The notes below the pieces were generated by a model. That model saw nothing but the letters and a program-made list of their open reading frames with translations. It was not told the DNA's origin and searched no databases. From the NCBI GenBank assembly GCA_963763775.1, contig CAVXPZ010000001.1, forward strand, positions 960,001-1,024,000: a stretch of 64,000 nucleotides of DNA. The letters are read 5' to 3'. Positions 33,118-33,346 of the stretch are shown here, piece by piece; positions within the stretch are counted from its first letter, which is position 1, and each line of letters begins with the position of its first letter. The DNA is from an uncultured Chloroflexia bacterium (GTDB taxonomy: Bacteria; Chloroflexota; Limnocylindria; Limnocylindrales; CSP1-4). The position numbers and the translations under genes were made by a program.

Positions 33118-33147
33118 TTGACGACCGTCGCGCGACTCCGGCACCAT
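33118..33147 (+). promoter_or_regulatory. Putative sigma70-type promoter for the met leader
   Basis: TTGACG (33118-33123), 18-nt spacer, CACCAT (33142-33147). Confidence 0.5.
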
Positions 33148-33156
33148 CGGCGGACC

Positions 33157-33225
33157 GTGAACACGATCCTCGTCACCGCGAACATGTGTATGCGCAGGCG
33201 GCCCCACCGAGAGGTCCGGGTCTGA
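33157..33225 (+). CDS. Putative attenuator leader peptide MNTILVTANMCMRRRPHREVRV (22 aa)
   Basis: GTG...TGA ORF with tandem ATG-TGT-ATG at 33184-33192, upstream of a terminator and metY. Confidence 0.6.
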   Translation: MNTILVTANMCMRRRPHREVRV

Positions 33226-33279
33226 CGTCCCGCGCACGTACGAGATGACGTAGGAGCGGGACCACAGACCAGGTCCCGG

Positions 33280-33319
33280 GGCCGCGACTCCCACCAGAGG
33301 AGCCGCGGTCTTTTTGTTT
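33280..33319 (+). terminator. Intrinsic terminator (attenuator) in the metY leader
   Basis: Stem GGCCGCGACTCC / GGAGCCGCGGTC (11 of 12 pairs including one G-U), 7-nt loop, then TTTTTGTTT. Confidence 0.8.
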
Positions 33320-33346
33320 GCCCAGGACATCCAGGAGGCAGCACCC

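Follow-up and report, generated by a model that had tools for sequence, protein, structure and literature searches.

The stretch of DNA considered here, hereafter the window, comprises 64,000 nucleotides (nt) from an uncultured Chloroflexia bacterium (GenBank assembly GCA_963763775.1, contig CAVXPZ010000001.1, positions 960,001 to 1,024,000), and the element in question is the leader of its metY gene, which encodes an O-acetylhomoserine sulfhydrylase (homocysteine synthase) and is followed by metX. This leader holds a promoter-like sequence, a 22-codon short open reading frame (sORF) with adjacent Met, Cys and Met codons, a series of complementary segments and an intrinsic terminator, as listed below. 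We read it as a ribosome-mediated (leader-peptide) transcription attenuator controlling metY and the frame-broken metX, and on the comparative and folding evidence we hold this reading to be very probable.

33118-33123, plus strand: -35-like hexamer TTGACG, read directly; also the best-matching -35 in the genus copies listed
33142-33147, plus strand: -10-like hexamer CACCAT, after an 18-nt spacer from TTGACG and 9 nt before the sORF start
33157-33225, plus strand: leader sORF MNTILVTANMCMRRRPHREVRV, 22 codons, GTG start at 33157, TGA stop at 33223-33225
33184-33192, plus strand: sensing codons ATG TGT ATG (Met-Cys-Met), read directly
33192-33205, plus strand: segment 1, GCGC A GGCGGCCCC, 5' strand of a local protector hairpin and of the antiterminator
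33218-33236, plus strand: segment 2, GGGTCTGA CGTCCCGCGCA, containing the sORF stop codon; partner is segment 1 or segment 3, from the fold and the pair counts
33256-33270, plus strand: segment 3, GCGGGACC ACAGACC; partner is segment 2 or segment 4a
33272-33277, plus strand: segment 4a, GGTCCC, pairing with segment 3
33278-33285, plus strand: segment 4b, GGGGCCGC, 3' strand of the antiterminator, sharing bases with the terminator 5' arm
33280-33319, plus strand: intrinsic terminator, hairpin GGCCGCGACTCC...GGAGCCGCGGTC at 33280-33310 with one A/C mismatch, then TTTTTGTTT at 33311-33319
33333-33338, plus strand: metY Shine-Dalgarno (SD) sequence AGGAGG, read directly
33347-34684, plus strand: metY, ATG at 33347 (Pfam PF01053, E 2.4e-143)

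A sequence-only reading of the window had proposed most of these features, and they were recovered where it had placed them: the promoter-like TTGACG-N18-CACCAT, the 22-codon frame without an SD sequence and its Met-Cys-Met codons, the complementary 8-mers with the hairpin between them, and the terminator hairpin and U-run ahead of the metY SD sequence. CACCAT agrees with TATAAT at 3 of 6 positions only. Because just 9 nt separate it from the GTG, there is no space for an SD sequence of the sORF. The strand GCGGCCCC (33198-33205) is perfectly complementary to GGGGCCGC (33278-33285), and between the two lie the inner helices GGTCTG/CAGACC (33219-24/33265-70) and GTCCCGC/GCGGGAC (33227-33/33256-62). 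The window's own hairpin of segments 1 and 2 (1:2) folds at -20.4 kcal/mol, and the 181-nt leader as a whole has a folding z of -2.39, with 1 of 200 shuffles folding equally well.

In the mechanism that we infer for this regulation, transcription would begin at the GTG of the sORF or within a few bases of it, and the transcript could adopt either of two folds. The terminating fold would consist of three local hairpins, namely segment 1 (GCGC.GGCGGCCCC) with segment 2, GGGACC with GGUCCC (3:4a), and the terminator (4b:5) with its U-run. The read-through fold would be one long hairpin, in which GCGGCCCC pairs with GGGGCCGC (1:4b) and so occupies the terminator 5' arm, and in which segments 2 and 3 are paired. 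A ribosome halted at ATG-TGT-ATG for lack of Met-tRNA or Cys-tRNA would cover the base of the 1:2 hairpin and leave GCGGCCCC free, the third sensing codon standing exactly three codons before an invariant CGG; in this stalled state 2:3 and 1:4b would pair and RNA polymerase would continue into metY. A ribosome that has reached the stop codon would cover segment 2, so that 3:4a and the terminator form, and the same pair of hairpins would form on untranslated RNA, which would retain the 1:2 hairpin. This is a refinement of the earlier reading, in that the terminating fold has two more hairpins, 1:2 (with the segment that holds the stop codon) and GGGACC/GGUCCC.

Reading frame, sensing codons and downstream genes

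By DNA search, the leader recurs within the genus in 14 of 24 further genomes, with 71-78% identity. A covariance model built from 15 genus sequences (R1) found matches in 99 of the family's 151 genomes, spread over 38 of 49 genera and with at most four copies per genome; G121 is one of these 99 and was counted there only. After 100 further places had been added and all had been re-scored, 143 matches in 142 loci were examined, and 141 copies were classed as Met/Cys (n = 92) or Lys (n = 49).

The frame test was anchored on the invariant CGG of ...GG CGG CCC..., and an open reading frame (ORF) had to start 9-22 codons upstream of it. An ORF started by ATG or GTG runs through GGCGGCCC in 135 of 139 copies, versus 4 and 17 in the other two frames; 2 of the 141 classed copies lie too near the end of their locus and were left out, and the four exceptions have longer ORFs with starts further upstream. 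The start codon is ATG in 97 copies and GTG in 38, at a distance of 11-16 codons from the CGG (14 in 81 copies), and the N-terminal part of the sORF drifts in sequence and changes its length in whole codons. A promoter script that required a -10-like hexamer and at least 7 of 12 matches overall found this hexamer, with a -35 partner, ending 4-11 nt before the sORF start in 103 of the 135 copies (102 of the 103 at 6-11 nt). Since such a gap leaves no space for an SD sequence, the sORF mRNAs are probably leaderless or nearly leaderless, the transcription start being presumed from the hexamer. Frame conservation and start spacing together indicate an sORF positioned for translation.

Counted back from the CGG, the Met/Cys class has Met at codon -5 in 80 copies, Cys at -4 in 72 and Met at -3 in 85. 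The Lys class has Lys at the same three positions in 46, 25 and 49 copies, written as AAG AAG AAG or as K-x-K, and its matches score lower on the same scaffold (xGG CGG CCC, the inner hairpin and the GGGCCGCGG terminator). ATG makes up 1.73% of the codons in long ORFs of the window's genome and the Cys codons together 0.69%, and against this background end-product codons are enriched in the sORF. Variants that retain Met include MRM, MQM, MYM, MFM, MAM and MMSM; relatives carry MxM and up to 7 Met codons, and long sensing runs occur as well (SMRMAMGMQMMQMPWRP in L061, MDMWMCLSMCMCRM in L066). Judged from these codons, methionine is the main sensed residue, which refines the earlier Met/Cys reading. 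The sORF, its frame and its Met/Cys codons, whose conservation the sequence-only reading had expected of a true attenuator, are kept across the family.

The genes behind the leaders were identified as the first ORF with a high G+C content at third codon positions, found after 141 of the 143 matches and scanned with Pfam. Grouped by the codons of the leader, the first genes are the following.

Met codons outnumber Cys codons (n = 77): 66 metY; 6 OsmC-like; 2 PALP; 1 rhodanese; 1 beta-carbonic-anhydrase-like; 1 contig end
Met and Cys codons equal in number (n = 8): 3 metY; 3 carbonic-anhydrase-like; 1 sulfite reductase; 1 rhodanese
Cys codons outnumber Met codons (n = 9): 5 carbonic-anhydrase-like; 1 sulfite reductase; 1 solute-binding protein; 1 CMD; 1 PALP
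Lys codons (n = 49): 44 DapB; 3 long ORFs reading into DapA; 1 without a family; 1 contig end

Leaders in which Met prevails thus stand before metY or an OsmC gene in 72 of 77 cases, and metY was confirmed behind OsmC in L007 and L013/L017. Lys-codon leaders stand before dapB/dapA in 47 of 49 cases, and Cys-rich leaders before sulfur-assimilation genes. Of all the evidence, this tracking of the downstream pathway by the codon class speaks most strongly for the ribosome as the sensor, because neither a ligand pocket nor a metabolite-binding RNA would be expected to change with the codons of the pathway. The interpretation of the leader as a leader-peptide attenuator, which had been put forward from the window alone, gains support from the relatives, and in particular from the Lys codons carried by the same scaffold before dapB/dapA.

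We note several side observations on these codons and genes. The Cys codon of the leader (33187-33189 in the window) is TGT in 64 of 72 copies, and TGT accounts for 0.074% of the codons in long ORFs of the window's genome versus 0.617% for TGC; as a rare codon read by wobble, TGT may make the ribosome pause more sharply at this place, or the RNA itself may require the U. Behind Cys- or Met/Cys-codon leaders stand nine genes of the beta-carbonic-anhydrase family, PF00484 (L012, L045, L059, L070, L081, L089, L107, L131 and the second copy of L015), and this placing suggests that they work in sulfur or cysteine metabolism and not in ordinary CO2 hydration. A threonine-synthase-like gene (L093:428-1732, minus strand; TIGR00260, 241 bits) lies behind a Met-codon leader reading MAM, as does its neighbour L129:412-1719, recognised as PALP by the Pfam scan only, and this ThrC-like enzyme may act in methionine synthesis. 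A gene resembling cystathionine beta-synthase or cysteine synthase (L142:384-1511) follows a Cys-codon leader reading RCSC. In L015, two leaders stand back to back about 220 nt apart (1468-1608, minus strand; 1829-1961, plus strand), one preceding a rhodanese gene and the other, in the opposite direction, a carbonic-anhydrase-like gene.

Two alternative folds in relatives and in folding models

The helices were examined in two separate alignments. The Met/Cys alignment (A5) holds 90 distinct leaders; it omits two sequences identical to others, as well as L070 and L129, in which indels had displaced the anchor, and L119 was assigned to the Lys set instead. The Lys alignment (A6) holds 49 leaders. 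In the Met/Cys alignment, 86.4% of the cells of the read-through fold (1:4b, 2:3) are paired, compared with 39-52% when the partner is slid, and both sides have changed in 67 cells, compared with 25 in shuffles, none of 500 shuffles reaching 67. Its main 2:3 helix has both-side changes in 7 of 8 pairs. The terminating fold (1:2, 3:4a and terminator) is paired in 87.0% of its cells, with 119 both-side cells versus 40; the 3:4a helix is paired in 89%, and 8 of the 12 terminator pairs have both-side changes, columns 150/172, for example, being AU in 42 leaders and GC in 42. In the Lys alignment, the read-through and terminating folds are paired in 94.7% and 93.8% of cells, respectively. These pair counts support two mutually exclusive folds as the predicted states of the leader. 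At least 5 T occur in the 9 nt after the stem in 84 of the 92 Met/Cys copies, consistent with a predicted intrinsic terminator between the sORF and metY.

The antiterminator was followed in a set of 143 sequences, made up of the 141 classed copies and two of another family. Its 7-base core is fully paired in 137 of the 143, and the overlap with the terminator 5' arm is likewise kept. All 20 one-sided changes in the core remain G-U, and compensatory double changes occur in two sequences, as GCGACCC/GGGTCGC in L141 and as GCGGTCC/GGACCGC in L175, which is of another family. Because the same G-to-A change in L141 is matched by a U in segment 2 too, both partners of segment 1 are supported. The covariation that the sequence-only reading had proposed to test in its two helices is present in both, with many changes in the inner helix and with the two double changes in the antiterminator pair. 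Only the first base of the codon ahead of the CGG is variable (TGG 54, GGG 14, AGG 11, CGG 11), so that the W/R-R-P residues are conserved as RNA and not as peptide.

Folding was also modelled with a ribosome on the transcript, the masks covering bases to +10 from the P site. For the window's leader, the model gives 1:2-like pairs, 3:4a and the terminator if no ribosome is present or if one occupies the stop codon, and the long antiterminator hairpin if one occupies any of the three sensing codons. Under the stalled-ribosome mask the 1:2 hairpin becomes weaker, its median passing from -26.2 to -17.7 kcal/mol in the Met/Cys class and from -28.2 to -18.5 kcal/mol in the Lys class. Transcripts were then cut just before the terminator 3' arm, and the leaders in which at least 5 antiterminator pairs are expected were counted; the Met/Cys set comprised 87 leaders, five having been dropped (one at a contig end, four with distant starts).

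Met/Cys leaders (n = 87): free 44; ribosome at the third sensing codon 79; ribosome at the stop codon 48
Lys leaders (n = 49): free 12; ribosome at the third sensing codon 34; ribosome at the stop codon 32

Weighing attenuation against other mechanisms

Several results weigh against attenuation by a stalled ribosome. A simple consensus scan of 32900-33500 called no promoter-like and no terminator-like site, because its criteria were too strict for the CACCAT hexamer and for the mismatched stem. The antiterminator helix is almost invariant (1:4b is paired in 98.7% of Met/Cys cells and in 99.1% of Lys cells), so that direct covariation amounts to two sequences plus the wobble-preserving changes. 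The Lys-class U-runs are weaker, with at least 5 T in 9 nt in 26 of 49 copies. When full-length leaders were folded to equilibrium under the stalled mask, the terminator was still the lowest-energy structure in 6 of 7, and only the window's own leader switched; the dependence of the antiterminator on the ribosome is thus seen in the window's leader and in the cut-transcript model, and not in the six other full-length folds. Classical attenuators choose between their folds kinetically, the terminator being the more stable of the two helices. In the cut-transcript model, the 44 free Met/Cys leaders already favour the antiterminator, and a ribosome at the stop codon leaves it in place in 48 of 87 Met/Cys and 32 of 49 Lys leaders. 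We regard this stop-codon state as uninformative, since the model omits the bulk of the ribosome and its steric hindrance and the footprint stops just short of segment 1; the attenuation logic therefore requires the usual kinetic assumption that local hairpins form first. Related genomes share ancestry, and the copy counts overstate independence. Finally, the support comes from comparison and folding models. The RNA sequencing runs found contain 7-9% of the sampled words and consist of contigs; four of them, compared at 80% likeness, gave short pieces of diverged metY with almost no leader cover and are uninformative for starts, ends and levels.

Three other explanations of the same leader have to be considered. 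The sORF could sense Met/Cys with metY translation or Rho access as its output, by analogy with the leaderless polycysteine sORFs of mycobacteria, which, according to the accessible part of the preprint describing them, act via sequestration of the ribosome-binding site, stalling being what opens the structure (bioRxiv 10.1101/834739). Two findings fit such an output: in relatives, 58 of 69 metY leaders have a CCUCC-containing element after the terminator that could pair with the SD sequence of metY, and many Lys-class copies have weak U-runs. However, the window's own leader has no such second element, none of the folds computed for it hides the AGGAGG at 33333-33338, and the GC-rich hairpin and U-run are conserved and covarying, with the 5' arm overlapping the antiterminator strand in 137 of 143 copies, so that we consider this explanation unlikely. 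It is more doubtful again that the conserved RNA is a riboswitch for S-adenosylmethionine (SAM), methionine or a sulfur compound, with an incidental reading frame. Such a riboswitch would account for a scaffold that is highly conserved at the nucleotide level, third codon positions included (TGT 64/72), and for the RNA-type constraint on the pre-CGG codon, which varies at its first base only. It would not account for the persistence of the frame through whole-codon indels (135 of 139 copies, versus 4 and 17 in the other frames), for a start that adjoins the -10 hexamer, or for the change of codons with the pathway, Lys ahead of dapB/dapA and Cys ahead of sulfur genes, which one ligand pocket could not explain.

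No known riboswitch family was recognised in the window or in related loci. With Rfam 15, no family matched the leader at E (expectation value) <= 10 in a search of 31000-36000, SAM-I, SAM-IV, SAM-I/IV and T-box included, and no riboswitch or T-box was found at E <= 1 in 14 genus-level homologues or in 15 further family loci; the families that the sequence-only reading had named as competitors are thus missing from the window and from 29 related loci. By covariance model the leader falls outside the SAM riboswitches (SAM-I, -II, -III, -IV, -V, -VI, SAM-I/IV, SAM/SAH) and the T-box, and the lysine riboswitch (L-box) model had no match in 8 Lys-class loci at E <= 1. The least probable of the three explanations is that the nascent peptide (...R-W/R-R-P...) is an arrest peptide, alone or with a small molecule, and that the Met/Cys/Lys codons are secondary. 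R-P does come after the sensing codons in 90 of the 92 Met/Cys copies and in all 49 Lys copies, and proline-containing motifs occur in known arrest peptides. However, the R-P residues are encoded by the helix-forming bases themselves (GGCGGCCC), the preceding residue varies among W, G and R while the last two bases of its codon stay GG, and the sole pathway-dependent part is the upstream codon triplet. Elsewhere in the Rfam searches, chance-level matches (mascRNA, Hammerhead_II, Guanidine-II, mir-m107, IRES_Bip, Ysr224) were set aside, lying far under their gathering scores, and those of relatives returned one real tRNA, in L015.

Leader-peptide attenuation therefore remains our preferred reading, and the question arises how it compares with known systems. 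Textbook attenuation concerns Trp, His, Phe, Leu, Thr and Ile/Val, and the control of methionine and lysine genes is usually ascribed to riboswitches, T-boxes or proteins. The leader resembles the classical attenuators (trpL, hisL, pheL, leuL, thrL and ilvL of E. coli and Salmonella; actinobacterial trp and ilvB leaders) in its short ORF with end-product codons, in its alternative antiterminator and terminator hairpins and in the stop codon inside the switching region. It differs from them in sensing, as proposed, Met and Cys (Lys in sister copies), in an apparently leaderless mRNA and a Chloroflexota host lineage, in having five segments with three short hairpins opposed to one long hairpin, and in the reuse of one scaffold with swapped codons. 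In other bacteria, premature termination ahead of these genes (metY/metX, dapB/dapA) is brought about by S-box (SAM) riboswitches, T-boxes and the L-box; however, these RNAs sense a metabolite or tRNA directly, without translation, and none matched here.

In Actinobacteria, attenuators or leader peptides have been described for trp, cys and ilvB/leu genes, and the accessible part of that study reports that lysine and methionine operons had no conserved RNA structures ahead of them (Seliverstov et al. 2005, PMC1262725). Neither metY nor dapB occurs as a case in the available portion of a later survey (Naville and Gautheret 2010, PMC2965389); its Supplementary Table S8 has seven dapA entries, and the two rows shown carry no attenuator annotation. 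The closest parallel is the mycobacterial 'Cys ribulon', in which, going by the part of the text available, leaderless polycysteine sORFs work through a structure concealing the ribosome-binding site (Canestrari et al., bioRxiv 10.1101/834739). A leaderless sORF, pausing at sulfur amino-acid codons and a regulon read by ribosomes at several loci would be common to both. In contrast, the output here would be a covarying intrinsic terminator, and the codons are Met-Cys-Met and not a Cys run. The window's leader falls outside the mycobacterial group, with one Cys codon between two Met codons and no SD-hiding fold seen, and no sequence relationship was detectable in a comparison made through Rfam only.

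No leader-peptide attenuator for methionine or lysine was found in the literature searched, subscription journals being outside its scope, and the same search, within the same limit, bears out the earlier remark that no Met-codon attenuator of such a form is known to have been described. On comparative grounds, the metY leader is a member of a modular family of putative Met/Cys/Lys attenuators in Chloroflexota / Candidatus Limnocylindria, for which we found no describing paper. With moderate confidence, we further propose that one ancestral chassis (leaderless sORF, GGCGGCCC switch strand, terminator) was copied and re-coded at its three sensing codons only. A whole Chloroflexota lineage would then read Met, Cys and Lys via stalled ribosomes in place of S-box, L-box and T-box, through the first Met-, Cys- and Lys-specific transcription attenuators; specificity would be programmable by codon swap alone, the near-exclusive rare TGT would be a tuning device, and the second element behind the terminator would be an extra, undescribed regulatory layer. 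The comparative data approach a genetic experiment, as the same switch carries Met, Cys or Lys codons according to pathway across dozens of genera, in a host lineage that is uncultured and lives in soil and freshwater. If correct, the reading would extend the list of amino acids sensed by leader peptides, make visible a way in which such switches diversify and provide a compact, apparently programmable chassis for synthetic control. It would also allow function prediction from the regulon, since the leaders would place beta-carbonic-anhydrase-like, OsmC-like, rhodanese, ThrC-like and cystathionine-beta-synthase-like genes in sulfur amino-acid metabolism.

Distribution, neighbouring genes and a second conserved element

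A second model, R2, was built from the Lys set and run on 150 other genomes of the class (151 with G000, the window's own). It matched in 31 of 44 genomes of the window's family and in 3 of 50 of a second family, and found none in three other families of the class (0/6, 0/49, 0/1). An exact-pattern scan of named genomes gave at least 120 stretches, of which 80 loci were then examined. Among the matches listed, R2 confirmed 47 of the 80, all from organisms named as Chloroflexi, Chloroflexota, Chloroflexia, Candidatus Limnocylindrales or Limnocylindria; the 33 that it did not confirm, again among the matches listed, comprise 32 outside Chloroflexota (e.g., Streptomyces, Methylobacterium, Pseudooceanicola, Chlorobium) and one Chloroflexia (L210), and were treated as chance matches in GC-rich DNA. 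The lineage of the element would therefore be Chloroflexota of the Limnocylindria type, not Actinobacteria.

The window's own genome carries exactly two copies, the metY leader and a KKK leader before dapB on another contig (G000:C3:765625-765766, minus strand; L126). The latter, with the leader MNRRTFSSDSKKKLWRPCREARALGL, has TATAGT 7 nt before its ATG and a weak U-run, CTTCGTGATT. Weak model matches elsewhere in this genome (E 0.19-4.7) look like coding sequence, have neither sORF nor terminator and were dropped.

The genes next to the leader and metY are the following.

34814-35750, plus strand: metX (homoserine O-acetyltransferase) in two frames, N part at 34814-35203 and C part at 35208-35750
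32037-33056, opposite strand: zinc-type alcohol dehydrogenase, the upstream gene

The metY assignment is firm, with 674 bits against the NCBIfam model TIGR01326 (cut-off 495). The C part of metX matches NCBIfam MetX models (E 5.7e-37), and the N part was recognised by eye only, in stop-to-stop translations. Of the two genes that the earlier reading placed behind the leader, metY is thus confirmed in its identity and metX does come next, but the metX reading frame is broken; the split near 35204 is either an assembly error or a real frameshift.

In relatives, a second conserved element lies between the terminator and the start codon, of the form (C)CUCCG-N6-8-RCGACGGGURRCCGCC, followed by a variable hairpin and CCGGGAC. 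It was not found in the window at 33320-33346, had no Rfam match, and RNAalifold gave no consensus structure for it in two alignments. It stands directly 3' of the U-run in L002, L006-L012 and others (e.g., L009:1394-1508, minus strand), and it accompanies 58 of 69 metY leaders, 6 of 6 OsmC leaders and 0 of 44 DapB leaders. Its CCUCC could pair with the SD sequence of the gene, and the element may be a further, Met-specific regulatory layer.

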